Of a DNA stretch of 64,000 nucleotides, positions 19,283 through 62,076 are shown piece after piece. The notes under the pieces were generated by a model. That model made no database searches. It saw only the letters and a program-made list of their open reading frames with translations, and was not told the DNA's origin. Both the position numbers and the translations under genes were made by a program. Location of the stretch: NCBI GenBank assembly GCA_964187785.1, contig OZ076409.1, forward strand, positions 49,850,001 through 49,914,000. Direction: 5' to 3'. The stretch's first letter is position 1. Each line of letters starts with the position of its first letter. This DNA comes from Amphiscolops sp. MND2022 (lineage: Eukaryota).

Positions 19283-21366
19283 TGTGTTGACCCTGAGATG
19301 GGTGCAACTCGTTCAACGTAGTTGGCCTTGATGTCGAGGCTTGATTTTCAGGTTCGTAGAGATCTACTATAGGATTTTCAGATCTAGGCGGGTGGCCTGA
19401 CAATGAGTCTATTTTTGAAGATAGATTCTCAATCATCTTCAGGATTTCCCTTTGCCCAGTTTTGGCATCTTTTATCCTTCTACCAACTGATTTTTCGATT
19501 TTCTCGGAGATTTCGGAGAAATCACGATCAGAGATACTGGGTACATTTTCAGTCCTTTGGCGAGCTGCCTCAGGTTCACCTAGTGAGCTGGATACTTAAT
19601 CCCTTCGGGCTTTCCTTTTAGAGGATCTTTCGGGCATTTTGGATTTCAAGTTTACAGGTTCAAACTATTCGACAAGGAATGAAGAAAGGTTGAGATTTTT
19701 AATCTTCAATTGAGTTTTGAAACAAGAGAAACAAAGTTGCTTTACAGTGAGCGGTTATTGAATTTTCAGAATTTATTAAAATTATTTTTCAACTGCAATT
19801 ATTTAACTTTTCCAAGTATATATACCTTTCACCCACGTGAAGCGGGGAAAAATCCGCACCACTTTCACGTTTTATTCAGCCCGGCGTCCTTCCAAGGCGG
19901 AGAAACCGGAAGTTCAGTTCCGCTTTGTCGAACTCAGGCTTTCAGTTTGTTCATGCTTCCCGAGGAAAGCACGCGTCCACTTCCCGCCTGAGTTGCGACT
20001 CCGCTTCCCTTCGCCTCCAATTCCCGCCTTTTCAGGACGCCGAAGCTGAAATCAGCAACAAAATGAGCTGATTTAAATATTACTCCAGATAATAGTTATT
20101 TCAACGAAACTGCACTTAGGCTCGTAAAACCACTCGTGGGGGCATGAAAACACTGATTAGGTATGAAAGGACAAAGCTCGGTCTCAGGTTGAGGTCCGAG
20201 ACGATTAGGGCAAAATAGCTGATTTCCCAAAAATAGCAACGACTAACAATTTCGTGATTTAAATCAACTTGGGGTTGCTATTCATGTCATTTCTCAATCC
20301 AGTTTAAATGGGGATTAATTTTAAAAGGGTAGTACAAACCATTAATAGTGATTAAATAACTCAAGCCAAAGATTTAATTCCCAGGCCGGGGTCTAGGCCG
20401 TGGTTTAATGCATTCAAAGTTAAGTATTGCTACATGAATAAATGGTCACAAATTGCATGTAATTAACCACTAATTCTTACGATACTGCGTATTTGGATTG
20501 TGGTTTCACTGATGAGACGATGGATAATCGGGAGCACCGATATTTTCACTTTTAGGATGGATTTGGACAAACCTGATTTCAGGCCGGGTCCTTGGCTACA
20601 GTTTATTACATTTAATAATCAATCTTGGTGTACATGGGTGAATAGCATTGCACAACAATCTTGACCGTTATGCAATCGTTTTTCATTGTGGGTGTTTAGT
20701 TATCGGGTAAAAATCATCAACCAAATTAACAATTTCCATTTCTACAATGGATTTTATAAATTTACATTTCAGGCCACTTCCTGGGCCGCGGTACATTACT
20801 TCCAGTTAAAATCAACACAATTTGTAGATTACTCAGGGAATTACATGTAAATCATCACATTAGTTGTCTTTGTTTGCATCAATACTTTTACATGTAATCA
20901 TTTAAAAGCGCGTTCACTGCTGCATAGTGTTAAATAGCTCATTCCAATTTCAGGCCGCTTGCCAGGCCGCCGCTTTACTGCGCAAATCTGAGGCCGGTCG
21001 CCAGGCCGCGGTTCCGCCTTCAATCTTTCAAGCCGTTTGCTTAGCGGTGTGATTCTATTATTATTAATTATATAGCACTGTATTATTATTATCATTAACT
21101 GCACTAATAGCTCCGTACTTGTTGGTACACTGTGTGTGTATGTATATATTCTTGTATGAAATTATGTAATTATTAGTATTTATACATATATAAATATAAA
21201 TTTAGCTCCGAGCTGATTTAAAGTAATAATTTATAATAGTAATAAATTAGTTGTATATTAGTTATTTCACTTGCCTTTTCTTCTGTTTCGGTCTAATTCC
21301 AATTTCCTTCTTCGTAGACCGCGCTTATTGTGTGACAGTTTTCACAGCTTAGCTGGGGCTGTGACA
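19283..21366 (-). repeat. 3' LTR of element B (2084 bp)
   Basis: Near-identical to 32907-35084 apart from scattered substitutions and a ~90-bp segment present only in the other LTR (about 33692-33783). Confidence 0.95.
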
Positions 21367-21889
21367 GTCCTCGGCTTCGATGCGCTGTCTCATCTGGAAG
21401 GAGGAATTGGGATATCGACCGGATTGGAGTGTTAAATAAAGTGGGTAGGTCGTCGCGCATTGAGTCGTAGGATCTCCATGAAGAATCCGAGTCCCAGTCG
21501 CTTCCTGACCAGTACCCTTCTGAGCTGCTGTATGAGCTCATGGGACTGCTGACGGTAGAGTTAGGGCTGTATCGGTTCGCAGGATTGAACTGCCGGATTG
21601 GGCTCACGAATTCGTCATCTGGGATAACCGGATTATCTGTAGTGAATCTTCGTATCACTCCTTGTTCGTTTTCAACGTTAATTGCATTCACAAGTGGTTG
21701 TTCGTGAACAAGGACTACATGTATATCTTCCGCCTTGATTATTTCGTAAGTAAAAGTATACTGTGCTGTGTTGATGAGATTGTAATTAGGCGGCGGTGTA
21801 CCGGGCCTTTGTCCTAGCTGCGCTGGTTGATCTCGGTCGAGAAGAAAAACATCTTCGTTTGTTTGATCGTTGAAGTGGGAATTATCCAT
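21293..21889 (-). CDS. Extra sense ORF of element B (198 aa, unknown function) running into the 3' LTR
   Basis: ATG-initiated uninterrupted ORF, Ser/Asp-rich; the LTR start TGTCACAGCC falls within ..RGLSQP..; an ORF in the same position exists in element D. Confidence 0.6.
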   Translation of the reverse strand: MDNSHFNDQTNEDVFLLDRDQPAQLGQRPGTPPPNYNLINTAQYTFTYEIIKAEDIHVVLVHEQPLVNAINVENEQGVIRRFTTDNPVIPDDEFVSPIRQFNPANRYSPNSTVSSPMSSYSSSEGYWSGSDWDSDSSWRSYDSMRDDLPTLFNTPIRSISQFLLPDETAHRSRGLSQPQLSCENCHTISAVYEEGNWN

Positions 21890-22120
21890 TTTATTGAAGT
21901 ACCGAACTGAGTGTCAATTGATTTGGAAAACAACTGATTGATCCGCGTCTTGAAATTTGTTCACACCATTTGTGTTAAGTTTGTTGAAATATTCAGCTGG
22001 CAGACTGAACAACTCTCCTTATATAGTAGATAACTTCTAGTATTAATATTTCCATTGTTTTACGCCACATCTTCATTGTGTTATAGTTTTTTTAAAATAT
22101 TTTTCAGAAAGTTTTGAGAC

Positions 22121-25100
22121 ATGAGCTCCACTGAAGAAGATAATGCCTTACTTTGTCACAGTCGGGAGGTTGGTTTGAAGGAAAGTGAGGCTGAGGTGGA
22201 ATCAGTCTTCGAGTCAGTTATTAGTGGAGAGGAGAGAGTGCGTGGTTGTGATGACAGGGATGGTAGTGATGAGGCAAGTGTTACTGGCAGTCGCGATGAA
22301 ACTGGAGAGGCTGTTGCAGGCATAGTGACCGAGACGGCAGGACGAGGATTTGGCGAAAAAGATGTTACCGAGGATGAGATTGTTGAGACTGATGGTGAGA
22401 GCTGCCCTGAGAGTGAGTCCTACCACTCTGCCACAAGCGACAATCGTCATGACATGGATTACTTGGCGAACAAGAAATGTAAGCTTTCCTAGAAATTAAA
22501 TGGGTGGCCGGCCCTTTCTAGTTTTGTATGAACGCGTTCTTTTTACATCTACTTTCTACAGTGACTGATGATGAGATTGACGCGGATTATTGTCCCAGCG
22601 CCGGTTCAAAATCGCAGCGCAAGCAGAAGAAGCAGTGTCGATCCAGTCGGATGCTTTCGACGAACAGTGTCCGGTCAGCTAAGCGTGTGCGATTGGCTGA
22701 TGTCGTTGCGGGGGTCATTCCGAGGCCTCCTACCTCAATGGACAGTTGTGGCGAGGAGTATGATCCACCGACTGTTTCGAAGACTCTCGAAAGTAAGTAT
22801 TCCTTCCTCCTTCTTGTCGTTTGTAATGTACTTGTTAGGAGTCGTTTATTTGCGAGTTTTGATGCTCCTTTTGAGATATCTCTATGTCGTTGTTTTAGTC
22901 GCTGAACTGGGGCACGGACCAGGAATTGGATCATCTACAGAGGGTGATGTTTTTGTATGTGAGGCTGCTTTGGAGACGCCTGCTCAGGAAAGTGACATTG
23001 TCTCTTTGCTTCCTGATGAGTCCTCTCGACACACCCGAACTCAACATGGTCGGACAGCGGTAGGGTTGGAGCCCTCTGTCATCCATAACGAGTGGGAGAA
23101 TGGTATGTTTCCCTATTCGTTTTTCTTGCTTCTGTTTGATCTATCCTCTATATGATCTTTCGAATGCGTAGTTTGTCTAGCTGTTCGTTTCCCTTTCCTT
23201 CTGCCATTGCGTTTTTGATATATTATTATATTTGTTATAAGCTGGTCTGCAGTCTGTCCCCACTGGTTCTCCTGTTGTGATGTCGGCCTCGCAGTGTGTC
23301 ATTTTGGCTCGAAGTGCTGCCCGGTCTGAGCGGACGGAGACGCAGAAAGAGACTAAAAATTTGGCTAAACCTGAGTATTTCCTCAAGTTTCTTCTTCGTT
23401 TTTGTGTGTTATTTGTTGTTTCTTCGGTTGTTGGGCGTTTAGTTGTAGTTGTTTGCCGTATGTTTTGATGGTGTACTTTCCGGTTTGTCTGTTTCGTCGT
23501 TAGCTTGTTGGTTGATTGAAGGTGTTTTATTTTAAAATTCGAAGAGCTGTCTCGTTTGTTGAAACTGAAAGGGATTGACGCCAGTGATCCTGGGCGTGTT
23601 GTGGATCCTGTCGAGCTTAGAAAGGAGCGGCTTCTGGCTCGGGACGAGGAACGTGCAAAGAAACAGACCGAGAGGCATGTTCTGACTAAGGCCATGAATA
23701 ATCACCCGATACCCAGGCTGTTTGTTAGTCGTCGGATTGATAAGAGCCCCAATGGATTTAATTGCTCGGTGTGCCGTAAAGATGTGTCTTTCCTGTCCCG
23801 AGGGCCCCGAGGCATCTGGAGGCACTTTAAGTGCAAGGGCCATTTCGCAAAGGATCGGCGTTACCGATTTGATCACGAAGACTTCATCTATACTGAGAAG
23901 TTCGATGCCATCGCTGTCAGTGAAGTTTCGTTGGAATTGCGAGCTGAAATCGAGAAAACGCCACCAGTTACTCTGGGGAAAATGAACAACTTTGTCGAGG
24001 ACGAGGTGAATGCATTGGTTGGCGTCCCGTCCAATGTGCCTCCTACGACTCTTGTGGGTTGTTTATTTGAGCTATTGAGAAGTGGTGGCTCGCAGATGTT
24101 TCTCCGTCGTCTGTGGAGCCAGTTCCGTACGACCCTTCCAGTTGACAACCCGTATGCCTGTGTTACCTGGAGTAAGACTGAAACCTTGGTGGTGATAGTC
24201 CAGATCCTTTACCCACGCGTACTTCGTCGTGTGAAGTCATGGCTTGGCGACAGTCCTCTTAGCTTGTCAGTGCAATCGTCATTCTTTGGGGTGCGATGTA
24301 CTGTCCGATGCTGTCCCGATGACTCTGTGCGGGAAGTGTGTCTTGTGGATGAAGACGTTGGAGTTGTCTCCTGTGAAGCCGAGATTCGTTGCCTGTCCTG
24401 CGTGTTGTCTTTGGTGTCTACTCGTCATGGTCCTGTTGCCATTCAAAACTGCCCGCCTGTGTTATTTAACGCTTACATGGATTGGTGCCGTTCTATGGGT
24501 CGACCTGTACCTGTTGTTGCTACCATCTTTGATGTTGATATTCTGCGTCGTTTGGTTCGTGATGCCAGTTTGGTTTGTGTTGGATCCGTGGATCCATTTG
24601 CTGTCATAGAGTATCTGGGGCAACGTTGGAAAAAGTTTGCTCCCCAGGCTTGGCTTCTGAACTTGCCGCAATTCCGTCTCTGCTTGGAGTCGGGGGTAGT
24701 TCCTCCGGAAAATTTATGCGTTGTATTGCAAGAGCTCCTCGACAATTGGTCTGATGTGAAGATTTGTGTGTCGAACGATATCCTATTGATGAAGAAGAAT
24801 GTCAATGTCGTGGATCTGGTTTCCCTCTTGTGTTCAGACCGTTTGGGTCTGCCTCGACTGGCTTTATTGCATGTCCTTTTGCTGTGTTTTCGATCAAACT
24901 GCAAATGGTTATTTGAATCGGATGTTGCAGATTACGCTTGCAGGAGTTTTACTGATTTTTGCAATTTCTATTGGAGCCTGTTGAGCAAGGTGAAAAAGAT
25001 AAGTCAGCTACCTTCCATCGACAATTGGTCCGACTATATAGACAAACCACTGAACAGTTGGGCGAATGTGACTGCCTCCGAATGTCTTCAGGGGGAACCC

Positions 25101-25960
25101 AGTATCATGAAGGCGCTGCGTGGTTTTGACGAGAGTCCTCGACGGGCTTTCCTTCGTGAATGTCAAGGATATTTATTGGAGTTCCTGAAAGTTCTTGGCT
25201 CGTGTTCTTATGCCAAGTCTCGTATTGCGCGATCACTCAGTTGTCTTAGTGTCGACATGTTATTGGGTGGTGACGCTGAGTATGTTGTGGATTTGTTCCA
25301 AGACCTTGTCCTCTGCCTCCAGGAATCGGGATGTCTGGGCGATGTGGAATGGGATGCTGCCATGAACGAGTTTAAATCCCTGGTTATAGATTTACGTCAG
25401 CGGGGTGTTGATTGTTCGCAGATCTCTGATGTCTTCAAATATCTGGAGGGACTTGAGAGTTTCCAGTGTCGGGGCTTTGTAAAGCAAGTTGTGCGGCTGG
25501 TCCGAGTCCTGCTCCTAAGTCATTGCCTCCTGTTGATATTTCGACTAGCGGGACAAGTTTGCCTCCTTCTGTGATCCGGTCAGTTCTCCGAAGTGTACAG
25601 TCATTTGTACTACATCCTAAATTCATGTCTTCCGATTTGCTGACTGTAGAATGTCTGGAGGAGTTGAAAATGAATCTGCCGAATGGTCCTCAGTTCTTGG
25701 GTTGTGGCGCCTTCAATCCATGGGTTGGTGTGAGTCGGCATCCCATTGAAGAGATCTGCAACAGTCTGTTTGAGTGTTACAACGCCTATTATTCTGGGCA
25801 ATTGAATGACTGGCGGACTCGGACGTCGTCTAGTGCTGTAGTGCCTTCGAGTTCTACTGTTGGTCGTGCCTCTGTGGAGTGTAGTCAGCCTGGGTCGTGT
25901 TCGTCATCTCAGACGGGAAAAGGAGGTAAACGTGCTGTGCGTCAAGGGAAATCCTGTTGA
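22121..25960 (+). CDS. Antisense 5-exon gene in element B encoding a ~1100-aa hAT-transposase-like protein with BED-like zinc finger (this copy probably damaged)
   Basis: Exons 22121-22478, 22562-22792, 22899-23102, 23242-23370 and 23536-25960 join in frame through four phase-1 introns. Three are canonical GT-AG; the fourth reads CTGAGT..AA. CSVC..RHFKCKGH finger; frameshift near 25505; AATAAA at 26082. Confidence 0.75.
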
Positions 25961-26290
25961 AAACTATTTGAAACTAAACTTTGATAGATGACTTTGATTT
26001 ATTTTCTTTGTTGTTTCTTTTATTGTGTAGCCATTGTTTTGATATAAGGTTCCGTCTGTCGGTTCCGTTGTTAGAGAAAGGAATAAAATTCGATCAATTA
26101 TGCTCTGGTAGTATGGAGCAAAAGAAAAAGGTTGAGGCAGCTCGGTGGTCCACTGGGTTATTCAATTTAGTATTTAGCCTCTGTATTGTTTTCATCCGAG
26201 TCGTAGAGTAAAGAGTAAAAAGTTTTGAGAGAGAGGGAGCCAGTACGAATTGAGGATATTTGATATTGAGTCACAGAATGGCCGTCCAGG

Positions 26291-29200
26291 TTAGCGCCTG
26301 GGGCCTTTTCGGTTTTCTGATCTCGGGCCACCGTCGGGGCCGAGGTCCGCTAGGATCTGTATTTCTGGGCCGTCGTCTAGGCCTTCGTTCTGATTTACGG
26401 AATTTTCAGAGTTTATCTCTAAGGCGTTGTAATATGCAAAATCTGGTTTCCAATTTGAAGCTGGGTTTCGTCGGAGATTGTAATGGGATTTTCGGGGGGA
26501 TTTAGGAACGGGTGTATGATCTTCGGGTTCATCTTCTGTATCTAGGACTGGGTCATTTGTCTGGCTTCCTGGGTGGTTACTATTGCTTTCAGGCCTGTGC
26601 ATTGGGTCGGGGTTCAAAGGGCTGGGGTACGTAAGGGCATCGTTTGTTTCCGGTGCCTGGGGTATTACTTCGGGTTCGGGTGACTGGTTATTTTCGGGGT
26701 GGGTAGGGGGTTCTTGATAAAGTTCTTGCCAAGCCATTGCGAAGAGGTCATCGTGCAGTATGATTACCTCTGTGTCCTGCTGGAAATCTTTAGGCGAAAC
26801 TGAGATGTCAGGCAGTTTGTGGCTGCTTGCGAATGGCCATAGTCTGATTCTGTGCAGGATCTTGGTGAGGTTCGTTGGAGTTTTCGGATTAAATAATTAT
26901 TATTGGGTAGGGCTTTGACAACGATATATGGTCCCGTCCAAAGGTATTCCCGAAACGGCAGTTTTGTCGCTTGGCTATGCGCCTTTGGATGCAATGCATA
27001 GCAGTAGTCGTTTACTACCGGTGGATTTGCTGATGCCTTTCTGTCGTAATAGCGTTTATGACGTACATAGGCCTGCATCAGTGCTTGCTGACTTTGGTTG
27101 AGGATTTGTCGTGTTTGCTGCAACACTTCTTCGGCTATTTCGTGATTGATTGGGGCGGGGGCTGTGGTTTGCGTCCATATTTCAGGTCGAGTACGTTGTA
27201 GGGCACTCTTCTGTGAAACACCCTGCTAGGTTCGCTGCCTAGGGATGTGTGGTATGAGGTAATGTAGTTCAATACTGCCATCGGTAGGAATTGATGCCAC
27301 ATAGTGCGTCGTTCTTCTGTCATGATTTTGAGACTTTCTTTCAGGGAGGCGTGAGTCCTCTCTAGGATGCCGATCGTCTGGGCATGTTTTGTGGTGGCGT
27401 GTTTCAATTGGATTCCATATGCTGTTGTGGTTTGATGCATTGCTTCTGATATAAACTGGGATCCTTTGTCGGTTATTATTGTTGTGGGTAAGTAGCAATG
27501 CCTGGTTATGATGTCTGTGAGGACTCGTGTGACTGTCCTGGTATCGATTCTGGTGACACTGTATGCGAATAGATATCTGGAAAACACGTCCATTGCAGTA
27601 ATGACTGCGGTATAGCCTCCTGATGGGTCATCGAAAGGGACTATGTCCATCTGGAGTGCATCTTCGGGTCCCATTGCTACTTTTGACATGTCAATCAGCG
27701 GTGGTGTGATGGTATTATTGGGTGTCCTCTTTGTCTGGGCACATTCCATACAGTCTGCTATGTGGTTAGCTATTCGGGCGGCAAGTCCTGGGAAGTAGTA
27801 CTTCTCGCGGCATTGTTGGATAGTTTTGGCTATTCTCGGGTGTTTTCCATCTTTGCCATGGTGGTATTGTATGAATTCGTCGACTAGTTGTTGGGGGAGC
27901 AGCACTTGTAAATATTTGACTTTTCCAGTGTCCCCAAAATATTGCCTATATAGGAGTCCATCTTTGATGATGATCCTATCTTCTTGGGCTAGGTATTTCG
28001 TTGCTCTGGGATCGTCATTGAGGAGTTGGGTGTCATACGGTTCCTTCAATATTTTGAGCTTGAGGTTTCTGAGGACAGGGTCCTGGTCCTGGTGTGGTCT
28101 TAGGCTGCGAGGAAGATTGGTTTCGTTGTGTAACTGACGCCTTTAATCCTGTTCCGGGTCTTGGATGTTGTTTCAAACCAGGAGCAGATTCTCCGTTTGC
28201 GAGCTTGGTTCGGTTGTATCGATTTGAGAATCAGTTGGCTGTTCTTGGGGGTTATAGATTTTCTTTCGGGCACGTTGTTTGCGTTCCCAGATATCTTCTT
28301 CAGTTTCGGAATCGTCTTCCGGCAAAAAGTAGAATTGATCCTCCTCATGTATATCTGAGGATTGGATGTTCACTTGGATGGGCGTGGTCTGGATATCTTC
28401 TCTGATTTGGAGAAGGACTTTTTCTTTTGGATTGATGTCCAATCGGGAGAGGAAGTCGGCCGCCGTGTTCATCCTTCCTGGCACAAGGGCAATTTTGAAG
28501 TGAAATTGAAGCACAAAATCACAGGCGTTCCACAGGGAGGGTGGGATCATTTTGGTTTGAAAAAACCTTGTGACTGATTTATTGTCTATTAGAACGATGG
28601 TTGGTTTGGAAGAACCCCACCAGATGTGGCTATACTCCATGAAGGCAAAATAAATAGCTAAAAACTCCTTGGCATAAATTGACATTTTCAATTGTGACGG
28701 GGAGAAAGTTTTAGAGCCAAATGCCACGGGGGCATAAGTTTTCTTGGTGGAGGTGAGTTTCTGTTCTGGGTTTTCTTCAGTCATCAAGGCAAATCCAGCG
28801 TTCTTGAACATCGCATCAGTCATTAGGACATACTGCCGGTTTGGCAGCGGCTGTTTGAGCCAGAGGTCACATGCGTTGTCTAACGACTTGTTGATGGCTT
28901 CAAAGTTTGTTATGAGTTCTTGATCTATTTTGGCAGATTTGTCGGATTTGATGAGTTCGTGGAAAGGGGCTATCTTCTCGGATAATCGGGGAATGTAATT
29001 TCTGTAATAGTTCACAAATCCGATGTATCGTTGAAGTCCTTTCTTCGTTCGAGGGAACTTGAGTGTTTGCAAGTTTTTCTGGATCTTGTGGCTCTGGGGT
29101 GCCACTCCTGATGGGGAGATCGTTCGCCCAAGGAATTCGACTTCCTTGGCGCCGAACTGACATTTCGCCATTGTGAGCCGGAGTCCTGCGGCACGGATGC

Positions 29201-31810
29201 ATTGGAAAACCTCTCAAATTGTTTTTCAACTCTTCGGGAGTGTTTGTGGCGATTCCAATGTCGTCCACGTATTGGGCGCATTTGTCCGCCTTTATGGCCT
29301 TGTCCAGGTATTCCCTCATGAAACTTGAGAAGGACGATAGTGAGCGGCTCAGTTCTTGGGCCAGTCTCAGGTACGCAAACGTTCTGCTGGCAAAGTTGAA
29401 GGCTAGGAGCTGGACGGACTTCTGGTCTGCCATCTGCAGTTAGTGTGCTGACCGGATGGTTATTGTTAATATAGTCATCGGAGATCAAGGTATTGATCTT
29501 TCGGAGGTCCACTAGGAGGCGCAGTCGTCCATTCAGTTTGCGCTGGGCGAAGATCGGGCTGGCGTACTTGCTGAACGGGAGGGTTGTTATGATCCCGAAG
29601 TAATGCATTAATGCTAGTTCCACTGTCAAGTCCTCTTTCAAGTTAATAGGGCAGGGCAGGCTTTGCGAGTAGACTGGGTCGTCCGTTTTCGGCGTGAGTT
29701 TGATTTTGAAGTCATGGTTGATTCCGATGTCCAATCGGTGCCTCGCGAAAATGTCATTGAACTCTATCAGTATTTCTTGAATGTCTTTTTGGTCATTTTC
29801 TGTTAGTTGGGAATCATCCCATTTTAAGTTTTTGAGGAATGCTTCTCGGTCTTCTGCGTTGTTGTTGGGGTCCAGCTTCTGGATCTCTTCCAGTTCTTTG
29901 ATTTCCCTCAGTATCCTGCTCTGAATTGGCGTGTGGGTATTTGGGTCTCCAGGATTATCTGGTGTGGGGAACCAAAAGTTTTGACTGTGGGAAGGTTGGT
30001 CAGAAGTTTTCAGGAGTTCGTTGATGTATATTATTGCATCTTCTGAATCGTCCTCCGTGAGTACTTTTAGTGCTGCTGTGTTGAGTGGTTTGAGTTCTTT
30101 GGCTTCTTCGAGTGACATGATTTTGAACTCAGCAACAGTTGTATTCTTTTTTATGGTGTAGGGCGTGGGGGTGGTGTTGGTTACTCTGACGTCAGTTTTC
30201 CGGTTGGAGGCTGTGGATATCGAACTGGCTACGACCAAAGGGACACCGCTGCAATGGTTGGTGGCTGGGTTGATGACACCGGTTGTGTCGATGGTAGATG
30301 TTATGTCCGTGTAGGCGGTGATTGTCTTGGTTGTCTCAGGAGGAAAGGTGAGTGGACTCTTGACTTGTACTTTGTATAGCTTTCTGTTGCGGGTAAATTC
30401 ATCGGTTTCAATCGAGTACGTTAGATGGGGGAAGTGGAGTAGGCCTTGGCTTACATCCAGAATGGCGCTGTTGTTTTTCAGGAATGTGAGGCCGAGTCTT
30501 GGGCCTGTGAGTCGTTTTGCGACGATGAACGTTTCTTTGAAATTCGAGTCCCCGATTTCGAATTGGAGGATTATGGACTTGGTGGGGGTTTCAATGTCGC
30601 CGTTTGCGACTTGGAGTTTGAACGGGGGTGGTTCCAGTTCTTTGACTATGTCCTTGGGGACATCTGGAAGAATTTGTTGTAATCGGTTTCGGAGATGCAG
30701 TTAACCAGTGCTCCGGAGTCGATGAGGGCGTCCAGGGTCAAGTCCTGGAAGTCCATTGGGGCAAATAGCATCTTCTTTTTCTTCTTAAGGGTCACCGCTG
30801 AGAAGATTGGGATGCATTCTTCTTTGGTGATGGGGTCTCTTGTGAGGTATTCTGCAATCTGAGCCATGGGGTAGGACTGGGGTTCGTCCTGTGTCGGTGT
30901 GTCGTTTACAGCACCTGAGGGGGATTCAGATTGCATGTTGGTTTCGGCAGCCGTAATGGGTCGGGGGTCCTCGACTTTATTTGCGGGCTGACTTCTTGGG
31001 GAGGAGGGTGAGGGCGGCGCCTCGTTGTAGGAGAGGGGCTCTAGGAGTAGAGACCTTTTTATTCTCCTTGTTTGCGGTGTGGAGATTGTTATCTCCGTGT
31101 TGGTTGTAGTTTGGGTCAGGTCCACGGCTTCAGTCGTGGTCCTGCTTGTGAGTTTTTGCGTTTGGTGACAGTCTGGTGCCACGTCCATTGTTGGGGCTCG
31201 TACGATTCCGGCTCTGATGGGGTTGGCTGTTTGGTGTTTTGGTGGTGATTGTGGAGCCGTGGTTTGGGATCCATGGTTTTTGAGTATGGACTTTGGCCTG
31301 TTAGTCGATTCGTCGACTAGTATTTCCGTCACTCGTTCTGTGTCTTGGTCGTACTCTGGGACCGGTTGGATGGTTTTCGGTCTGTGGCGTGGTTCTGCTG
31401 ATATATTCATCCCGGTTGTCTTGATCAATTCCTCAAATGGGGTGCACTGCCGTTGTTTAAAGGTTAAAGTCGTTTTGTCGTATATTTTGGGGTTGTGATA
31501 GGGGTCGCAGTTGAAGTCGGGATCATGTATATAGGTTTCAGGGGCAGTAGTTTCGGGTAGTGGTCGTTTTGGAGTGTCGTAGTCGTTCGGGTTGTTAAAG
31601 TACCATTGTGGGTAGTCTTTTTTGGTCATTTTTTGACGGTTGTACTTTTGGAGCCTGTGGATTTGCCATCGTCGCTGCCAGTCGAGAGATGGTTGTTCAC
31701 AGCGCACGGTGATTTCTTCATGGTCGTAAGAGTTTGGGGGTTCCGATGTTGTGAAGTGTCGTGTGTGGACCTTCTTCCCAAACTGAAGATGTGGCGAACT
31801 TAGTTTTTTG
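26291..31810 (-). pseudogene. pol: pol of element B (PR, RT, RNase H, integrase with GPY/F), frameshifted
   Basis: LIDSGA protease; YASPIF..LRLLVDLRKIN and AQYVDD RT; LMTDA..YAKEFLA..NTAADFLSR RNase H; HH..CMEC, LQMDIV, TDKGSQF, LERTH integrase; WTGPYIV. Confidence 0.93.
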
Positions 31811-33261
31811 ACTGATTTGGTTCCTGGGGTTGGTTTTGCAGGCGGCATGTAGCCCATTTGGCTAGTTGCTTGGTTCTGGTACGGCGGCTGGGTCGCTTGG
31901 AAATTGTTTTTGGCATACTGACCTTGTGATTGTGGAGGTATCATGATGTTATTTGGGGACGTGGTTTTGGGGGTTTTCCACCACTGTGGTCGATTTGCCC
32001 AGTTGGCGCCTGAGTAACATTCTTGGGTTGTGTGGCTTTTCTTGCCACAGGTTTCGCATGGATCGACAATTTTGTTGGGACTCTGTTGCCTCTATTGCGA
32101 GCTTCGCGGGCTACTTTCCTGCAGTTTTTGATAACATGGCCGGATTGCCCACATCCGTACCATGGTCCTGACGCTTTGGGAGGATTCAGGGCTTGCTGTG
32201 GGTCTAGTGCATCGATTTGGTGCACTCCTGTTATGTTGGTCTCGTTGGGGGCCAACAGTCCGTTTAACTCTATCTCTCTCTCCAAGTGTTGGACCATCAT
32301 TTCGTAGGATTCAGTTTCTAACCTTGCTTGGTTCAGGACTCGTTTGAGGTGGGTTGGCATTTTGGCGTAGAAGGAGGTCTCGATAAACTTGGGGGCGTCG
32401 TCACCGTATGCTTCTTGAGCCAGTTTTTGATACTGCTCCAAGAAGTCTTGAAAAGTTTGTTGGGATGGGTCAAAATGGAGTTGTTCCCCTTTGCAGCGGG
32501 CTGTCGCGATAGATTGGGGCGGACATATCGTCGTCGGAAGGTCGCGATGATGTCGTCTATGCTGGCACGGTTTGTGTCAGTCATGTTGCGGTAGGTCTGC
32601 AGAGCATCATCCTTGAGTAGGGAGTGGAAATAGTGGATCTGCTCCTCTTCTGAGATGTTGGGATACACTTTGAGGCTGGTCATGAAGAGTCTTCAAAGTG
32701 CTCAAACTTGTCGTTCTTTCCGTTGAATGTGGGCATGGTTGTTGACAATGCCTTGGGCAATCTGGGGAGCCCTATGTTTTGTTGAGTGACATTCCTGAGT
32801 GATTCTAGCAGCTTGTCCACTATGTGATCCGAGTATTTCTGATTTGGAGGCGGTAGGCTCGATGATCGGGGCGGTGCTTCTGTTTGGGGGAACACTCCTG
32901 TCACCATGTGTTGACCCTGAGATGGGTGCAACTCGTTCAACGTAGTTGGCCTTGATGTCGAGGCTTGATTTTCAGGTTCGTAGAGATCTACTATAGGATT
33001 TTCAGATCTAGGCGGGTGGCCGGACAATGAGTCTATTTTTGAAGATAGATTCTCAATCATCTTCAGGATTTCCCTTTGCCCAGTTTCGGCATCTTTTATC
33101 CTTCTACCAACTGATTTTTCGATTTTCTCGGAGATTTCGGAGAAATCACGATCAGAGATACTGGGTACATTTTCAGTCCTTTGGCTAGCTGCTTCAGGTT
33201 CACCTAGTGAGCTGGATACTGAATCCCTTCGGGCTTTCCTTTCAGAGGATCTTTCGGGCAT
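31800..33261 (-). pseudogene. gag: gag of element B, initiating inside the 5' LTR
   Basis: ATG at 33261 within the LTR; MPTFNGKNDKFEHFED capsid-like motif; zinc-knuckle remnants (xYGCGQSGHVIKNC); several frameshifts. Confidence 0.85.
32893..32906 (-). promoter_or_regulatory. Primer binding site TGGTGACAGGAGTG (tRNA-Leu-like)
   Basis: Directly follows the LTR terminal CA; 13 of 14 positions match the familiar tRNA-Leu PBS TGGTGTCAGGAGTG. Confidence 0.75.
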
Positions 33262-35084
33262 TTTGGATTTCAAGTTTACAGGTTCAAACTATTCGACAAG
33301 GAATGAAGAAAGGTTGAGATTTTTAATCTTCAATTGAGTTTTGTAACAAGAGAAACAAAGTTGCTTTACAGTGAGCGGTTATTGAATTTTCAGAATTTAT
33401 CAAAATTATTTTTCAACTGCAAATATTTAACTTTTCCAAGTATATATACTTTTCACCCACGTGAAGCGGGGAAAAATCCGCACCACTTTCACGTTTTATT
33501 CAGCCCGGCGTCCTTCCAAGGCGGAGAAACCGGAAGTTCAGTTCCGCTTTGTCGAACTCAGGCTCTCAGTTTGTTCATGCTTCCCGAGGAAAGCACGCGT
33601 CCACTTCCTGCCTGAGTTGCGACTCCGCTTCCCTTCGCCTCCAATTCCCGCCTTTTCAGGACGCCGAAGCTGAAATCAGCAACAAAATGAGCGATGATTC
33701 AACAATTCGCTCTTAAAAAGCAGGAAAAGTGAAATTAAAGCAACGACAATTATGGAAATTAGAAATTCCCCAAAACGATCTAACTGATTTAAATATTTCT
33801 CCAGATAATAGTTTTTTCAACGAAACTGCACTTAGGCTCGTAAAACCACTCGTGGGGGCATGAAAACACTGATTAGGTATGAAAGGACAAAGCTCGGTCT
33901 CAGGTTGAGGTCCGAGACGATTAGGGCAAAATAACTGATTTCCCAAAAATAGCAACGACTAACAATTTGTGATTTAAATCAACGTGGGATTGCGATTCAG
34001 GTCATTTCTCAATCCTGTTTAAATGGGGATTAATTTTTAAAGGGTAGTACAAATCATTAATAGTGATTAAATAACTCAAGCCAAAGATTCAATTCCCAGG
34101 TCGGGGTCTAGGCCGTGGTTTAATGCATTCAAAGATAAGTATTGCTACATGAATAAATGGTCACAAATTGCATGTAATCAACCACTAATTCTTACGATAC
34201 TGCGTATTTGGATTGTGGTTTCACTGATGAGACGATGGATAATCGGGAGCACCGATATTTTCACTTTTAGGATGGATTTGGACAAACCTGATTTCAGGCC
34301 GGGTCCTGGGCTACAGTTTATTACATTTAATAATCAATCTTGGTTTACATGGGTGAATAGCATTGCACAACACTCTTGACCGTTATTCAATCGTTTTTCA
34401 TTGTGGGTGTTTAGTTATCGGGTAAAAATCATCAACCAAATTAACAATTTCCATTTCTACAATGGATTTTATAAATTTACATTTCAGGCCACTTCCTGGG
34501 CCGCGGTACATTACTTCCAGTTAAAATCAACACAATTCGTACATTACTCAGGGAATTACATGTAAATCATCACATTAGTTGTCTTTGTTTGCATCACCAC
34601 TTTTACATGTAATCATTTAATAGCGAGTTCACTGCTGCATAGTGTTAAATAGCTCATTCCAATTTCAGGCCGCTTGCCAGGCCGCCGCTTCACTGCGCAA
34701 ATCTGAGGCCGGTCGCCAGGCCGCGGTTCCGCCTTCAATCTTTCAAGCCGTTTGCTTAGCGGTGTGATTCTATTATTATTAATTATATAGCACTGTATTA
34801 TTATTATTATTATTAACTGCACTAATAGCTCCGTACTTGTTGGTACATTGTGTGTGTATGTATATATTCTTGCATGAAATTATGTAATTATTAGTATTTA
34901 TACATTTATAAATATAATTTTAGCTCCAAGCTGATTTAAAGTAATAATTTATAAAAGTAATAAATTAGTTGTATATTAGTTTCTTCACTTGCCTTTTCTT
35001 CTGTTTCGGTCTAATTCCAATTTCCTTCTTCGTAGACCGCGCTTCTTGTGTGACAGTTTTCACAGCTTAGCTGGGGCTGTGACA
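32907..35084 (-). repeat. 5' LTR of element B (2178 bp)
   Basis: TGTCACAGCC..GGTCAACACA on the minus strand, followed by the PBS. Confidence 0.95.
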
Positions 35085-37349: not shown

Positions 37350-37852
37350 TAACAAGCCGGGACCGGCCCAAGTCGTCGCCATATCCAAGGCTCAAAAATA
37401 GCAAAAAGACTTCCAAGTGTCAAGTATTCACTTTTACAGTACTCGAAAATCGAAAATTTTTCGAAAAAAAAATGGACCGACTGGCGCGCTAAAGTCTCTC
37501 AATGCCGAAAAACTGAAAGGGGGGACCCTTTGGGATTTTCCAACATCCATTCTGTCGCAAAACAGCAAAAAAATTGAAGGGGGACCCTTTGGGGAAAAAT
37601 TTCCCGGAAAAAAATCTCGCAGTGCCGAAAAAAATTGGAAGGGGGACCCTTTGGTCTCCCCGGGTATAGTATGGTACGCGGGAAAACAGGAAAAACCTTT
37701 TTGGTTCAGTTCGCTAGACCAAATAGTGCAATTTGGTGCAATAATATTTTGTAGAACTTTTAAGAACTATTTTGGTCAGTTCGTGTGGATTGAAAAAAAA
37801 GAAAAGTCACTATAATAGTCGCGTTTCACTTCATGAAGCGCCGACTAAAAAA
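37350..37852 (-). mobile_element. HINE copy 4 (best preserved)
   Basis: Reverse complement begins ttttagtcggcgcttcatgaagtgaaacgcgacta and ends ggcgacgacttgggccggtcccggcttgtt; internal gggggaccctt subrepeats. Confidence 0.65.
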
Positions 37853-39177: not shown

Positions 39178-39310
39178 TTCGTCGCGTTAACTGGAACAAT
39201 TCACTGAACCACTATGTTCGACTACCATATTATGGTTATTGGGTACCCAATACCATAATATGGTAGTCGAACATAGTGGTTCAGTGAATTGTTCCAGTTA
39301 ACGCAACGAA
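39178..39310. repeat. 133-bp almost perfect loopless palindrome (foldback/MITE-like)
   Basis: Arms are reverse complements around the centre GGTACC, with one mismatch and one 1-nt indel. Confidence 0.9.
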
Positions 39311-42544: not shown

Positions 42545-44873
42545 TGTCACAGCCCGCTCCCGGACTGGCTTGTGGGTGCAGACGGGTAGGATATGGGAGA
42601 GGCCATGGTTGCGGATCGAGATTCCCAAAATGGTATCTTAACTGTTAGACTCAAAACTTTGATTAAAATTAACTGAGGCTAGGTACAAAATTACAAGCCT
42701 TTTTTGCGCAAACCTTGAATGAAAATGAATATTAGAAAATTAAAATAGACAAAAATGATTTCACGCATTTCCGCCAAGACGTTTACGCCACGCTGAAATA
42801 GAAACATTCTCCACCTGAAAACTAAATTGAAATGCGCCTTGAGATAAAGTCATAGACTAATCAAAACACTATACCGACTTATCTCTAAAGCATCAATCAA
42901 ATCTAAAACAGAAGTTACATTGAATTGGTTCACTAAGGAGAATACGCTTATCTAAGAAAAAGCAACTTAATTGCTCTTTGAACGGCAATTAGTGCAGATT
43001 TGGACTACCACTCATCACTAAGTAAACAAATATGGCCGTGGCAGCTGGTTTTGCTATGTTAGTGACGTTAGCAATATGTCAGCAACTAAACAACTAGATA
43101 AAAGTATTCCAAATTATTCGTCGGGATCACGTCACTAACTTTCCAGCTAGCTTGAAGTTCATTCCTAAATACTCGTCAGCAACTTGTTAAACTAGGCAGC
43201 TTGTCATAAAAGTTTGTCAACACTACGTCGCAAATCCATCAAAATAGCTGTTTCTGTCCTTTCCATGGTAGTAACTTAATAGCGGTTTCGAAGGAAAATA
43301 TCAAAAAAAGACTGTAGATTCACATCTAAATTTAACAAGGATATAGTCGATAGTTTGAAGAATACGTTTTACTTTCTATCCGATAAATTTGGCGACGATT
43401 TAATTACGAAAATTGAGGTTTACTAAATTTCGCTATCAAGGAAATGTTCCGGTATTCACTAAAAGTCACAGTTGATGCATACAAAGAGTTAAATTGACAG
43501 TTACTTTTTGATACTGAAAGATTTGTAAATGTGATGTTTCTACTTTTTCAGAATAACAATATAGTGAAGCTGTTTGATACCAGGTTGTTGTTTTCTTTTC
43601 GACAACTCGTGGAATCTAAGCTCAGAATAGACTTTGCAGTTTGTGATTCATTTTTACCAGTACACAGTACTTGTTGTTAAATCAGTGAATATTCAATATT
43701 TTCGCATATTGTTGCTGTTGGAATGTCGTTCGTGTTAACTAATAATACAAATGTAAATTTTGTTATCGGTAATAACGCGTTGCTACCTAAACCTGTTGCT
43801 ATACATGAGACTAATTAACGTTAACGTGTCGTCAAATACTCTTTGACTAAAATGTTAATAGATGTGGATAATAAGTTGAACTAAATAATTGATTGCTCTT
43901 ATACATTAATCAGCCTTTTTTCATCTCCTAGCATCTCTTATGTTTCAAACGAAAGCGATTAGTCATCATTTCTTTTCAAGTGAAATTCAAAATCAGGTGT
44001 TAATTGTTCACGTCAGCGTCATCCCAGCGTCAATTTTCTTACGAACCGAAGCAGTAAAACAAGAAAATTTTTGCGGTTTGTCAGACTGAAGTAAAATCTA
44101 CTTCCTGCTTAGGAGGAAACAAAAGGACGCTGGAATGAAATGGTATGATCATGTTTGATGACCAATACCAGACCAAAAAGTTTGTGTCCCAAAATTTGAC
44201 GAAATGTTGACGCAAATTAAGGATAGTGATGACTTTTTCACCGAAAATACAGGAAATGACTAATTGTTTATAAGATTTTAAGGTTTTAGTTTGTGATCAA
44301 TTGATGCTAGGAGGGTATAAATACGGCGTAGCCCGGAGATTAAATGACTCAGTCTTTTGCTTTGATACAATACAATTGTTCTGAAATTTCTCGTTAACTT
44401 TGCCCCATCTCAGTTTGAAGGTTCAATCAAGAATCAATTGGAAATACAAAATCAAACCCGTTTCATCAAGATGTCTACTACAAGAAGTCAGAAAACAAGA
44501 AACAAGCTTCAGGAAAGCTCTGAAAGTGAAGTGAAGGTTTAATCTCGCCAGTTATAGTAGAAAACTCAAGATTCTCAAACCAAGACGTATCAGCAACGGG
44601 GCCTTCGAAAACCAAATCCTCAGGATTGAAAATAGTGTCTAAGAAAGTTTTCGAGCTTCTTTGAGAAAGAAAATGTCTTCTGAGATAAAAGCCATCCCAA
44701 AGGAATCTCAAAAGGAGTTGATGAATCTGCTAAAACCTAAAACAGGAGAGGAGAAAGTGCAAGAGCAGAGGGCCAAAACGAACTAGAAAATGAAACTAGG
44801 TGTTTTTATACTCCTACAAAATCAGTAAGAATGAACTCTACTTATAACAACGACCCGAGTACAAGTCGTAACA
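42545..44873 (+). repeat. Putative 5' LTR of element C
   Basis: Starts TGTCACAGCCC like LTR B, ends CA directly before TGGTGACA; contains gag start ATG at 44471. No second copy in the window to confirm. Confidence 0.65.
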
Positions 44874-47800
44874 TGGTGACAAAAGTCTTGAACGTTTCCA
44901 CCAATAAATCAAAGAGGAAAAATATAAGGTCTCAGAGCCAGCCAGCGTCTAAAGAATGTCCCAGAGTAGCTAGGACACTATTCGCGCCAGATAAAAATGA
45001 CAGCTCTACGCTGCCAATGCCAAAAATCCTAACAGCGTCACTCCCAACTTTCGATGGGAAATCTGAAAATTTCCAGCTGTTTGAGGACCTTTTCCGAAAT
45101 ATCAAAATGTACCCACAACTCACGGAAATCCAGAAAATAAACCATTTCACTCCGTACTCCGTGATGACGGTCTGCAAACGTTCTGCAATATAGAGGACTC
45201 CAAAGTGATTTCTCAGACAAAATAATGACAAAATCTTCAACCGTCGCTTTGGAGACTACTTCTTATGGCCAAAGCGAGATGTGAATGGGATGCGCTTAAA
45301 TTTTGATCCCTCAAGGCAAAAACTACACGAGTAAATGAATACACTCCAAAAAACAGCAAAAACGTTTGGAACAGAAGCCTAAAAGTTCATTGATAAGGCT
45401 ATATATGCTGAGATGCCAGACCACGTCAAGAAAATACTCAATAGAGCATATCTTGAGCTTAAACCATACTATGAAATAGTACTCTGCTTGGAAAAGATAA
45501 ATGAGGCTCAACGGCCTTGGAACGCCAGACGAGGTTACGTTCGTCCCTCTAAACAAAATCGAGGCAGCCCAGCCCCCAACAGAAACAAAACGAGCAGAAA
45601 ACAGAACCCAAAACACCAAAAAGGGGTAGGAATGCTTCTGTCATAGAAGCATTCCTACCCTTTTTTGGTGTTTTGGGTTCTATTTGATTGCAATAAGTGT
45701 GACCATTTCAGAGGTAAATGCCGGAAAATGAGACTTGACAAATGGCAACAGCAACAAACCCGGAAAAACAACGGCCAAACCAACTCAGGAACAGGCAACA
45801 CGCTCAAATGGGACTCCTGCTGCGAACTTAATGAACGGAAAACTGTTGGAACTGAGCCAACGCTTCCAACGATCCGCGACCTAAGCGTCATAACCTACAA
45901 GATCGAAAGACGGAACACCTCGTCCAATCTACGACAACCAAAAGTGTCGATGAATCAAAAATTAAAAACGCCGCGCCTGCGCTTCAGGGAAACAGTAGAC
46001 GCGAGGGCGTATTCAATAGAAGATCCCATCACCGAACACACTAACAACTCAACAACGAACTGCAATGGAACCCCAAGAGAGGACGACTGGCTATGATGTC
46101 AAGCAATAGCAACAATAAAAAGACATAATACCAAAATTGAACAACAAAAAGAAAACCCAGAATGAATCAAGGAATCCGACGATCAATACATTACGATCAA
46201 ATGACCACTTCCAGAATCAAATCAAGAAAGAGTCTATGTCTTCGACAAAGACTACAAATGCGACCCCTGGGATAGGCCAGACCTGCACGACCAGTCCTCC
46301 TTTACTTTCAAAGACCAACCCATTACTCCCACTGCAGGTCTAACTGAAAACGCCCACAACGACCAAACTACGTCACAGCCACCCAAGGAAGATACCAATG
46401 GCTCCAACAAGAAACCTATCTTCACAGATGACTTCTCCGCCTCACTCAACTCCATCAAAAAAGATGTAATTGAAAAGGTTGGAGACGCATGCATGCCCCT
46501 ATATTCAACCACACCATTTAAAAGCGAAGGAGAATGCTGTACCTGCCACTCGAATTTGTCGAAATAACCATGGACTGACTTGTTGTCTCTGGAGCTTTCT
46601 TCAACGCAATGTCATGGTCTGACTACAAAATAACAAGATGAACAGCGACAGTTGGGTCATTAATGAATACCCTCAATCACCCTTCAAAATTGATATCGCA
46701 AATGCCCAATTGGAACAACCTATAGCCACGGCCGACATTCAATTCAACATCGGTACCTACACTTTTACGGACAAAGTCGTCATACTCTCGAAGACGTCTT
46801 TCCCAATAATTGGACTAAACTCATGGGAAACCAGCAAGCAGTCATCGACACGGCAAATAGCACTATCATTTTTCCCCACGTCGAAATGACGATGGCAATG
46901 ACAGATGAAATGAAGAGTTGCAACCCTAAACTTTTCCAAATATTAACAGACGGGACCAAATGCTATGGCCACAACAAACAACAACAGTAAATGCAGTTGT
47001 AATCACCAACACAACTGATGTCACTGGCGCGGTACAACCATTACCACAATTGGACGAAACAGCCCTTATATTCGTCGCCGCAGCACTAGCAACTGTCCAT
47101 AACAAACGAATCAATTTCAGAATAGCCATTCTGTCGGACTTCGCATATTCTATCAAAAAGCACACAAAATTGACCAAACTCCAAATTCTTAAGTCAGAAG
47201 ATACAAAACAAATACGACTCATTGACGCCGCTGTTCTAAAACTACTACTGCAAGATCCCGATGATACTCACACATTCGTCAACAAACTCTTGAAGTCCAA
47301 TGAAAACGAACAAAACGACGAAAATCTTTGTTTCCCCACACCATAAAACCCGTTGAACAAAGAACACACACCCATACAACGGCGAATACTAAAAAAATCC
47401 GTGAACTTATCAAGAAAGAACAGTTAGATCCAACCAAAGACGAAGAGTCAAGAAAGAAATTTCTTGACATGATCCAATGGGAAGAATCACAGGTTGAAGG
47501 AGATGATTGAAAGAAACTGGAGCAAACAATAGTTGAAAATAATGACATCTTTGCGCGTCACCGATTCGACATCGGTATATAACAACATCGGTACCGATGA
47601 ACTTGAAAGACTACCTATTAGTCGAACTAGCATCATAACGACGCTACCCTTCTCAAATTTTGCAAGCCCAATTTTTGTACAACGCAAACTAAATGGCAAA
47701 TTGCGCCTACTTGTCCATCTGCGAAAAATAAACGCGCTTATCTCAGATGATTACATCAACAACAATCACCCAGTCAGATACTTGTCGGATGCAGCTCAAA

Positions 47801-51433: not shown

Positions 51434-52911
51434 TGTGACAATCCTCTCCTGTGCGGTCCTCATTCATGACCACAGAGTCGTTTAGATCAATGTTTTGCAT
51501 GCTCAAAGGTTGCATTGGCGTTCTAAGTTCGTTTAAATTAGATGGCCTGAAAGGGTTATCCTGTATTTCACATTCTTGATTTTCTGTCTCAGATGCGTTT
51601 AATTCACCGTCCTCATTACTTGCGTATTTTGAGGTTCCTGCTCCGGGGGTGTTTTGCTCTCGATATCAACTGTTTGGTACGGATTGTGTTCTTCTGTTAT
51701 TTTGCATCTCTTTCAGTATTTTCTCTAGTTTTCCATCCATTTCTTTCCTTAAGTTTGCTACTTCTTTGTTCGTTTCATCTGATATTCTTTGAGTCCAAAT
51801 TTGCATTTCATCTTCATTTTGTGTTCCACTGTCTAGAGCTATTTCTTCGTCCCTAACTGAACTAACATTTTCAAAGTAACCTAAAGTTTCGATAACATTT
51901 TCATTACCTTGTGATGTCTCTATTTCGGATGTGCTCAACTCTCTCTCAAGTGAGGGTGATTGTCCTCGTCTAGATCTTCTATTTCTCTTGTTACCCATTT
52001 TAGTCAGGTTAAAATGCTGTTTTGGAGAGAAGAATTTCAATTAGAATGATGAGCAAAGTAGAATTAGGTTGAAATGAAGTTGGAGAAAATGCGCATTATG
52101 ATAAGTTATCAAAGTTGAAACAATGGTTGTGAGCATGAAAAGAAAGGTCTGATCTGTCTGAATGTTTTCTGTTGAATGGTTTTTTTGGGTTCTTACTCTT
52201 CTTTTTGATTTGGGCTAAATTTAGCAGCATGACAAGCACTTTTAAACGAATCATCATTACATCATTATTAGGTAATGGCTAAAAATAGCGCCCCGTTCTT
52301 TTCCAAAATTATATAAATAGATACTTACATGACACAATTATCTATTAATAGCATCCTGCATGATGTCATATACTTCATTCTGATTGGTTACGTATAGCTC
52401 ACATTGAGCACTGATAAAAAGTGAATACTACATCATGATTCATTTGACTCTATACCAGTACATTACCGAAGTAACTAAGTGTGAATACAAATGAGTCACA
52501 TCTTCGAAGGTCATGTTCTAAATTTCAAAGGAATGAAATTATACGGCATTATGCTGCAAACTTTATGCAGAATCAATACTTCCAGTTGCAAGTCACATGT
52601 TATTATGTATAACAGTATTATACTGCCGCATAATTTATTCGTTTCACAAACATCTGAACAAGCTAACTTTAGACATAAGGCGAATGAACAACTATTACCG
52701 TGTTTGTATGTAAATCAGCAGTAGTAAGGATATTTACATAGCATCAATAGCAAATAAAACTTAACACAACTGGTGCTGAAACATCGCAAATAAATTAACA
52801 TAACATGAGTTTTACGTGTTGACAAGTTTTTGAATGGGGGACAGTAGGCGGTTTGGAGCATTTGCCGTCAACGCTGCACCACGGATCCAGCTCATGCTCT
52901 CGGCTGTGACA
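51434..52911 (-). repeat. Putative 3' LTR of element D (1478 bp)
   Basis: Minus strand TGTCACAGCCGAG..GAGGATTGTCACA; contains the gag-like ORF MGNKRNRRSRR.. from 51998 to the LTR end (frameshifted). Confidence 0.7.
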
Positions 52912-54019: not shown

Positions 54020-55123
54020 TTGGATTTTAAAGTTTCAACTGTTTTCTTCAGAAAGTTTTGTTTGAATGAATCTTTTCCGTTTTTCTTCACACTTTGACTA
54101 TTCTCCCTATTTTCCAAATACGGTAAATAGTGTGCGGAGTCATCACCCTCTCTTGTTTACCTTTTTCCCGGTAATTTTTGGGTTAGCGTTAGATAATATC
54201 TCACTTTTATTCAAATAGCTCCACAACAAAATGAAGTTTTCTTCACAACTTCCATATATGGCGGATAAGGGTGTTATTCTTCCATTCAAGTCGATAAAGG
54301 CAAAATAATTAACTGTAAACAAATATGAATGAAACCTAGCATGCTGAATTTTAAGAACTCAATTTTTATTTTTGGATTTCACAATTTTTCCTTTTATAGG
54401 AGTATAATATGCGTTCTAAATAAAATCATCAACAAAATGAAAATAAAACCAAATTACAGGACTTTCAATTAAAATCAATGACAAGCTTCAGAATTAAAAT
54501 GATTTGATTCACTCTCTTATACCATGTACACACTGCTTCATAATGTCTATTTCAGCACAAATATGTCAGATGTTTAATGCTTGATGGTCAGTTAATAATG
54601 AGACTGAAACATGTAGTCGTATGATTTTTCTGTTTTAAGTCATTCAGTTGGTACTATACTGTATCTTGCTGTCTGTTTCCGCACGTGACATTATACTGCC
54701 ACTAGGGGGCGGAGCATCATGTATGCGTAATTCGTTTCAGCTATGCTGTTCAGGACACCAATCGCTCTGGCAGATTTGATTGGTCCGTAATGAGCTCATC
54801 CAAACAGCGCACAGTATTTGCGCAAATATGTTTTTTTTTGTCATGCTTAGAATTTGTTCAGCCGGAAGCCACGCCGCAACATTGTTTGTTTTGAAGTCAT
54901 TATAAAGTCAAAATTTGTCGCTTGTCAGTAACCGCTTCTTAAATTTCTCACTGATTCCTTTTTTTAAAATATTTGATTCCGTAGAATTGTACGAATTAGT
55001 TTTGCAGGATAGTTCTTCCAATACAATCGATCTATTTGTAAATCACCAATTTTCATCGCCTTCTCAATTTCAATTCTTCCAATTTCCAATTCCTGTTCTT
55101 GTTCAAAAATTACAATTTCTGAC

Positions 55124-62005: not shown

Positions 62006-62076
62006 AACTTAGAGACTCCAAGATCCAGTTCTTGGGCAATCTTCTGTTGTCTACCAACGAGTCGTCTTCTTCTAGT

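Follow-up and report, generated by a model that had tools for sequence, protein, structure and literature searches.

A paired GGCC site, probably under selection, is arrayed in the LTRs of a Ty3/gypsy retrotransposon that carries an antisense gene of hAT transposase origin

We analysed a 64-kb stretch of DNA (hereafter, the window), in which self-comparison revealed a direct repeat of 2.1 kb, 19283-21366 and 32907-35084. The two copies are the LTRs of one element, here called element B, and differ by 47 substitutions over 2083 aligned bases; besides, 92 bp of the 5' LTR (33692-33783) are missing from the 3' LTR. The minus-strand frames between them match the Pfam families RVT_1, RT_RNaseH, Integrase_H2C2 and rve in that order, which is the gypsy order. 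The two TG..CA LTRs, the target-site duplication and the RT-RNase H-integrase order, found together with a primer-binding-site-like sequence, thus identify element B as a Ty3/gypsy element that is read from right to left. Its pol seems to resemble that of elements in acoel worms. Its main parts are the following.

19283 to 35084, minus strand: element B, a Ty3/gypsy LTR retrotransposon with TG..CA ends and a flanking 5-bp GTTTT target duplication
19283 to 21366, minus strand: 3' LTR, 2084 bp
32907 to 35084, minus strand: 5' LTR, 2178 bp
32893 to 32906, minus strand: primer-binding-site-like sequence, starting with TGG, abutting the 5' LTR and inside ORF1
26291 to 33261, minus strand: gag-pol, in the order RT, RNase H, integrase, with several frameshifts
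33441 to 33652, minus strand: TATA-like box at 33441-33448, preceded by ETS-like and E2F-like words
21293 to 21889, minus strand: candidate sense accessory ORF of about 200 codons, diverging from the antisense gene and running into the 3' LTR
22121 to 25960, plus strand: antisense gene derived from a hAT transposase, main frame 23520-25574, broken near 25490 in this copy

ORF1 starts within the LTR, with its first in-frame ATG at 33261, so that about 118 codons are present in both LTRs (32907-33261 and 19283-19637) and the primer site lies inside the reading frame; a related element at 42545-44873 has the same layout. Judged by its position, the interval 33441-33652 is the probable sense core promoter of element B, its words being ones that we take to be TATA-, ETS- and E2F-like. 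The candidate accessory ORF gave neither a family nor an Atlas match. Another element of the clade has an ORF at 52892-54034 (minus strand), without a Pfam match; both ORFs are in sense orientation just before the 3' LTR, both cross the first bases of their LTR, and both contain LSQP. Fragmented frames at 55476-57299 (plus strand) diverge from this second ORF and probably represent an antisense accessory gene of another kind in that element, with no tblastn similarity to the antisense protein of element B. The window also holds a further LTR element (57730-63121; 954-bp LTRs, 99.4% identical; DUF5641 integrase tail) with a 24-bp tandem array at 61697-62006, near-perfect palindromes at 39178-39310 (134 bp, 97%) and 45599-45685 (87 bp, 92%), and a dispersed non-coding repeat of MITE- or Helitron-like look in which GGGGACCCTTT words recur (37515-37650 and about 1288-1506).

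The U3 of both LTRs of element B contains a two-part site, T-N3-RGGCCR-N6-RGGCC, in five copies followed by a decayed sixth.

20379 to 20404, plus strand: motif copy M1
20577 to 20602, plus strand: motif copy M2, second half-site imperfect
20767 to 20792, plus strand: motif copy M3, with ACTTCCTG in its spacer, presumably ETS-like
20948 to 20973, plus strand: motif copy M4
20987 to 21012, plus strand: motif copy M5, 39 bp past M4
21026 to 21051, plus strand: decayed sixth copy, 39 bp past M5, matrix score 7.6 vs 38-45 for M1-M5
20216 to 20944, no strand: spacers S0-S3, AT-rich, of which S1-S2 and S0-S3 are weakly homologous
34094 to 34766, plus strand: the six copies in the 5' LTR, starting at 34094, 34292, 34482, 34663, 34702 and 34741

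An earlier note on this DNA had described five copies at start-to-start spacings of 198, 190, 181 and 39 bp, separated by AT-rich sequence, on the U3 side of the LTR and repeated in the other LTR, all of which is borne out: M1-M5 have these spacings, the spacer GC content is 0.31-0.37, and the array, counted from the start of the LTR, spans 313-991 bp, ahead of the TATA-like box. Its consensus, with a gap of N5, has to be corrected to N4, and the half-sites recur at 12 bp. The unit consists of two RGGCCR half-sites in a fixed 12-bp repeat, in which the invariant columns cluster in the half-sites and the middle is free.

The array is real and element-specific. In a held-out test, each of the five copies outscored all 126,338 other positions in the window (5/5). 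All ten GGCC-N8-GGCC pairs of the 64-kb window fall in element B (4+3 in the LTRs, 3 in pol); of the 103 GGCC words in the window, the 56 outside element B form no pair at 12-bp spacing, and no pairs were found at any other spacing from 5 to 21. The oriented 21-bp pattern, which was partly tuned after the internal sites had been seen, gave 12 matches with at most one mismatch, all in element B and on one strand, and none in the 48.2 kb outside it. No comparable array was present in two other LTRs or in two LTRs of the same clade (42545-44873; from 52911 leftwards), which share the TGTCACAGCC end with element B. Scans for spaced dyads in these four LTRs and one intergenic stretch reached at best p ~4e-7 to 5e-6, vs 1.6e-11 for the array, and equally strong dyads, derived from other repeats, occurred in 2 of 31 window tiles outside element B. 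Tandem Repeats Finder reported no array over the motif region, and no related locus was found in viral contigs or JGI metagenomes.

The motif had been placed in the LTRs, where it is indeed present, but it is not limited to them, since pol holds three perfect 21-bp matches with the same facing as the LTR copies (GGCC pairs at 26326, 26368 and 30490).

26321 to 26341, plus strand: motif copy inside pol, in its C-terminal tail, minus-strand reading GPDGGP
26363 to 26383, plus strand: motif copy inside pol, 42 bp away from the preceding one, minus-strand reading GLDDGP
30485 to 30505, plus strand: motif copy inside pol, in its protease region, set in part by the conserved G-P-x-L-G-L peptide

Shuffling synonymous codons of pol gave an expectation of 0.32 GGCC pairs vs the three seen (P=0.002). 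A matrix trained on the LTR copies only scored 17.4, 16.1, 10.2 and 8.5 on the plus strand of pol, with codon-shuffle null means of 8.6, 5.8, 4.4 and 3.3; none of 2000 shuffles reached the second score (16.1), and the top score in the gag-pol of the related element was 4.9. The excess rests mostly on the two adjacent tail sites, which may be one duplication: P is 0.003 when they are counted as one, and marginal (0.03-0.07) when both are left out. Among the pol relatives, 7 of 12 reach the tail, and these keep the G[PL]xxG[PL] signature at the first site in 4/7 and at the second in 1/7, the remaining signatures differing by single residues. The last 14-17 codons of pol (26312-26360) are nearly invariant among relatives, with about 63% identity in the rest of the tail, and this near-invariance suggests an overlapping DNA or RNA signal.

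The spacers, which had been described as non-repetitive, fit that description in four of the six pairs, which are at background, and depart from it in two: S1-S2 (p 0.007 vs shuffles, 0.002 vs 590 AT-rich control segments) and S0-S3 (p 0.009 and 0.007, respectively). This weak homology suggests that the array probably grew through old duplications of about 190 bp. The motif cores, on the other hand, align without gaps in all 10 pairs with 17-22 of 28 positions identical, and simulated uniform decay seldom combined so well-matched a window with such diverged spacers: across 18 settings of 300 runs each, no setting yielded more than 2 cases (joint P <=0.007; the simulation was star-shaped and simple, without gene conversion or unequal ages). 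The failure of uniform decay argues for an old duplication after which the site was retained. The earlier note had named as counter-evidence spacers that are decayed copies of one unit of about 190 bp with no extra conservation of the motif; the spacers do look like decayed duplicates, whereas the motif is retained beyond uniform decay.

The same duplications bear on the proposal that the copies stand at nucleosome-repeat spacing. Animal nucleosome repeat lengths cover a range that includes 198, 190 and 181 bp, and the spacing itself might have been selected to phase nucleosomes. We regard this as very improbable: there are just three such intervals, they are unequal and are followed by two of 39 bp, and a 10-11-bp AA/TT/TA period appears in only one of three spacers (p 0.015 uncorrected; 0.15; 0.78). 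The length of the duplication unit explains the spacing of about 190 bp, so that the nucleosome explanation is not needed.

Recent copies give no support for a constraint on the motif. A chance ORF across S1 and M2 allowed nine further LTR copies to be recovered as proteins, making 11 copies with the pair in the window; the codon cells varying over M2 (7/110) are as frequent as those in the spacer (39/540, p=0.84), and 2 of the 11 copies bear a change that would break the first GGCC of M2. Likewise, the two LTRs of element B differ from each other at 2/150 bases in the motifs and at 11/479 in the spacers (p=0.74). Since such copies mostly record neutral change after insertion, and a single site is covered, this test of conservation is weak.

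The absence of extra conservation in recent copies and the weak spacer homology are nevertheless what would be expected if the array were a neutral relic, i.e., GC-rich blocks spread by slips of the reverse transcriptase or by gene conversion, or leftover hAT subterminal repeats, functionless today. Moreover, the hAT-derived gene is flanked by the array on one side and, 360-420 bp beyond its end, by the two strongest internal sites on the other, a layout that recalls the ends of a transposon. Uniform decay, however, fails, the invariant columns cluster in both half-sites around a free middle at a fixed 12-bp spacing, and the antisense gene family has diverged to ~30-50% identity, therefore unselected ends from the time of capture should have vanished. 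Such a relic is in our judgement unlikely. We infer selection on the motif, and consider it likely, from the sequence patterns above, that the dyad is a selected binding site.

The antisense gene provides a candidate protein for such a site. For its main frame (23520-25574), 42 relatives were found, all in ENA and 43-95% identical; several clusters have 30-100 members, and an HMM search with the protein retrieved 828 representatives, the best 150 of which are mostly fragments. The short frames upstream, from 22121, are probably exons of the same gene. No Pfam family reached the cut-off in any of 23 members, a PDB sequence search was also without a significant match, and no hAT profile was found in 34 HMM relatives scanned against Pfam, so the protein was placed by structure and language-model features only. 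The model of the relative P0006 (pLDDT 73) shows the hAT fold, an RNase H-like core with a large helical insertion: its top match is the Hermes transposase (Foldseek probability 1.0, E 0.003; VIA Z 13.0, 392 aligned, rmsd 5.2), and the next unrelated match scores 5.8. Atlas neighbours are the hAT (Dimer_Tnp_hAT), FAM200 and ZBED5 clusters, with scores of 0.90-0.92 and 138-156 shared features, which count as a lead on the scale of that tool. A conserved DDE triad was not found: the presumed catalytic positions, located through general hAT motifs together with VIA range offsets and not through a residue-level alignment, are acidic in 0/23 (259), 2/23 (316) and 22/23 (683) sequences. As the first two positions are almost never acidic, the protein has probably lost two of its three catalytic acids and is dead as an enzyme. 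A conserved Gln, considered as the remnant of the catalytic Glu, was dropped after a check of the offsets.

The antisense zinc-finger protein that the earlier note had put forward as the reader of the motif is thus hAT-derived, and its finger is conserved.

23763 to 23843, plus strand: zinc finger of the antisense protein, C-x2-C..H-x5-H, undamaged in element B

The zinc ligands C, C, H and H are kept in 23, 22, 22 and 23 of 23 sequences, respectively, and also in distant relatives. The finger had been likened to BED fingers, whose ligand pattern is C-x2-C..H-x3-5-H/C, and it fits this pattern; Pfam zf-BED gave no match in the antisense protein. The helix before the first His reads GPRGIWRH or GE[PIL]EIWRH, in about 11 of 23 sequences each, and residues 66, 67 and 70 in the corresponding helix of Hermes read bases (PMC10368747). 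The finger alone (model pLDDT 92) gave weak fold matches, none significant, split between matrin/U1-type fingers (Z 3-4.7) and the BED fingers of ZBED2 (Z 2.7) and ZBED1 (Z 2.3).

The best of these fold matches are RNA-binding fingers, the motif copies all point the same way, and the genomic RNA includes pol as well as the 3' U3. The motif could be an RNA signal on the genomic transcript for export or packaging, either as a linear site or as a 4-bp GGCC stem with a loop of 8 nt, recognised by Gag, a host protein or the antisense protein. None of the fold matches reaches significance, though, an excess of folding is absent on either strand (z -1.4 to +1.1 in 8 folds), the flanks never lengthen the stem, and Rfam gave no match, which leaves this explanation with a slim chance.

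The apparent start of the antisense gene at 22121 stands back to back with that of the candidate sense ORF at 21889, which argues for an antisense promoter that is probably internal and distinct from the array. It is more likely that the array serves the gag-pol promoter. Its U3 position, ~650-1300 bp from the TATA-like box, would suit an enhancer or insulator that is under selection and read by a DNA-binding protein of the host, the dead transposase having some other role, and the evidence for selection (GGCC pairs, core identity, decay simulation) fits this equally. Sites for host factors are commonly multiplied by duplication in U3, the su(Hw) array of Drosophila gypsy being an example. Against a host factor, the 48 kb outside element B contain no site, not even in the two same-clade LTRs, a weak point given that the window holds little host gene sequence, and none of 11 consensus motifs (among them CTCF, ZFX, AP-2, ETS, NR5A, DR6, PLAG1, p53 and EBF) fits all copies. 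We give a host factor a modest chance.

Our tentative proposal is that selection maintains the array as a set of binding sites for the dead transposase that element B itself encodes and that would act in trans on U3, a reading that we hold with somewhat less than even confidence. The array would be a family-specific protein-binding module in the distal U3, with a directional pair of RGGCCR half-sites 12 bp apart as the binding unit. A unit of about 190 bp would have been duplicated long ago and the 39-bp duplications would be younger; the spacers would have drifted while the site was kept, with additional sites in pol. The likeliest reader would be the antisense product, a disabled hAT transposase keeping its N-terminal zinc finger and its oligomer-forming body, which would bind the paired half-sites, may bridge several copies, and would keep the promoter of the element open or active in trans, most plausibly by activating or protecting U3. 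hAT fingers have been shown to bind short internal repeats (PMC10368747), and transposases can act as sequence-specific activators, the domesticated ones losing the DDE (bioRxiv 10.64898/2026.08.24.746577). Counting against this proposal, the finger alone resembles matrin/U1-type fingers at least as closely as BED fingers, and the BED site of Hermes is a 4-bp AAGT beside AT-rich DNA, vs a 21-bp GC-rich dyad here.

A wider reading, in which this lineage of retrotransposons has turned a dead hAT transposase into a sequence-specific regulator for itself, with cognate dyad sites in U3 and pol, and in which the finger helix and the motif diversify together across subfamilies, is possible but doubtful. 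If true, this would be a domestication from transposon to transposon, an animal counterpart of the plant VANC and TnpA circuits; retrotransposons could recruit a transcription factor of their own from a different class of transposon, and very high copy numbers might be explained in part in this way. Otherwise, what is left is a U3 enhancer array of the ordinary kind and an unusual captured gene. The origin and function of antisense accessory genes of LTR retrotransposons are described as not established (PMC7264820). Here, the hAT origin of such a gene is readable and a concrete candidate target is at hand, so that the question of its function becomes directly testable. In a search of mainly open-access literature, we came across no account of an LTR retrotransposon whose antisense gene derives from a hAT transposase.

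Among known systems, the antisense ORFs of other Ty3/gypsy elements are similar in layout. Grande gene23, RIRE2, Retand TRP28 and Boty brtn also lie antisense between pol and the 3' LTR, encode a probable nuclear regulator and have family-specific repeats nearby, and Grande gene23 has its own internal promoter, as the antisense gene of element B probably does (PMC7264820; PMC11963269). Those ORFs are reported without similarity to other transposons except for the label Transposase_28, in contrast to the full hAT fold found here, and their repeats are short tandem arrays between pol and the LTR, whereas those of element B are dispersed dyads in U3. TRP28 (PF04195) was not found in the antisense protein, for which no Pfam family reached the cut-off in 23/23 members.

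Compared with Hermes and other hAT transposases, the antisense protein shares the overall fold and an N-terminal zinc finger with an x-x-R-H helix end, and hAT oligomers such as Hermes read several short, precisely spaced sites (PMC10368747), as proposed for element B. Its finger is of the C2H2 type with H-x5-H, whereas that of Hermes is CCHC (PMC10368747); furthermore, unlike in Hermes, the presumed first two catalytic Asp are not conserved, the gene is inside a retrotransposon, and the site is GC-rich.

In Spm TnpA and AtMu1, a regulator arose from a transposase that lost catalysis and kept DNA binding (bioRxiv 10.64898/2026.08.24.746577), as we propose for element B. Regulators of that type serve the source DNA transposon or the host, while element B would be a case of a DNA transposase recruited by a retrotransposon. 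Neither "retrotransposon" nor "Gypsy" appears in the main text of that preprint, the supplements of which may list captured transposases.

The circuit like VANC anti-silencing that the earlier note had envisaged has partial support within this one window: as with the VANC targets in the VANDAL transposons of Arabidopsis, the motifs are family-specific, in one orientation and multiplied through tandem repeats, and a trans factor encoded by the element acts on them in VANDAL (PMC5735166) and is proposed to do so in element B. VANDALs are plant DNA transposons (Mutator-like) with motifs of 8-9 bp that are mainly non-coding and with a demonstrated loss of methylation (PMC5735166), whereas element B is an LTR retrotransposon with a hAT-fold protein and a 21-bp dyad that also occurs in coding DNA. 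CpG observed/expected is 0.86-0.87 here, which suggests little CpG methylation. Overall, the putative circuit of element B is not a member of the VANC or TnpA systems and resembles them by analogy only, as a possible pairing of a family-specific motif with a regulator of the element's own.
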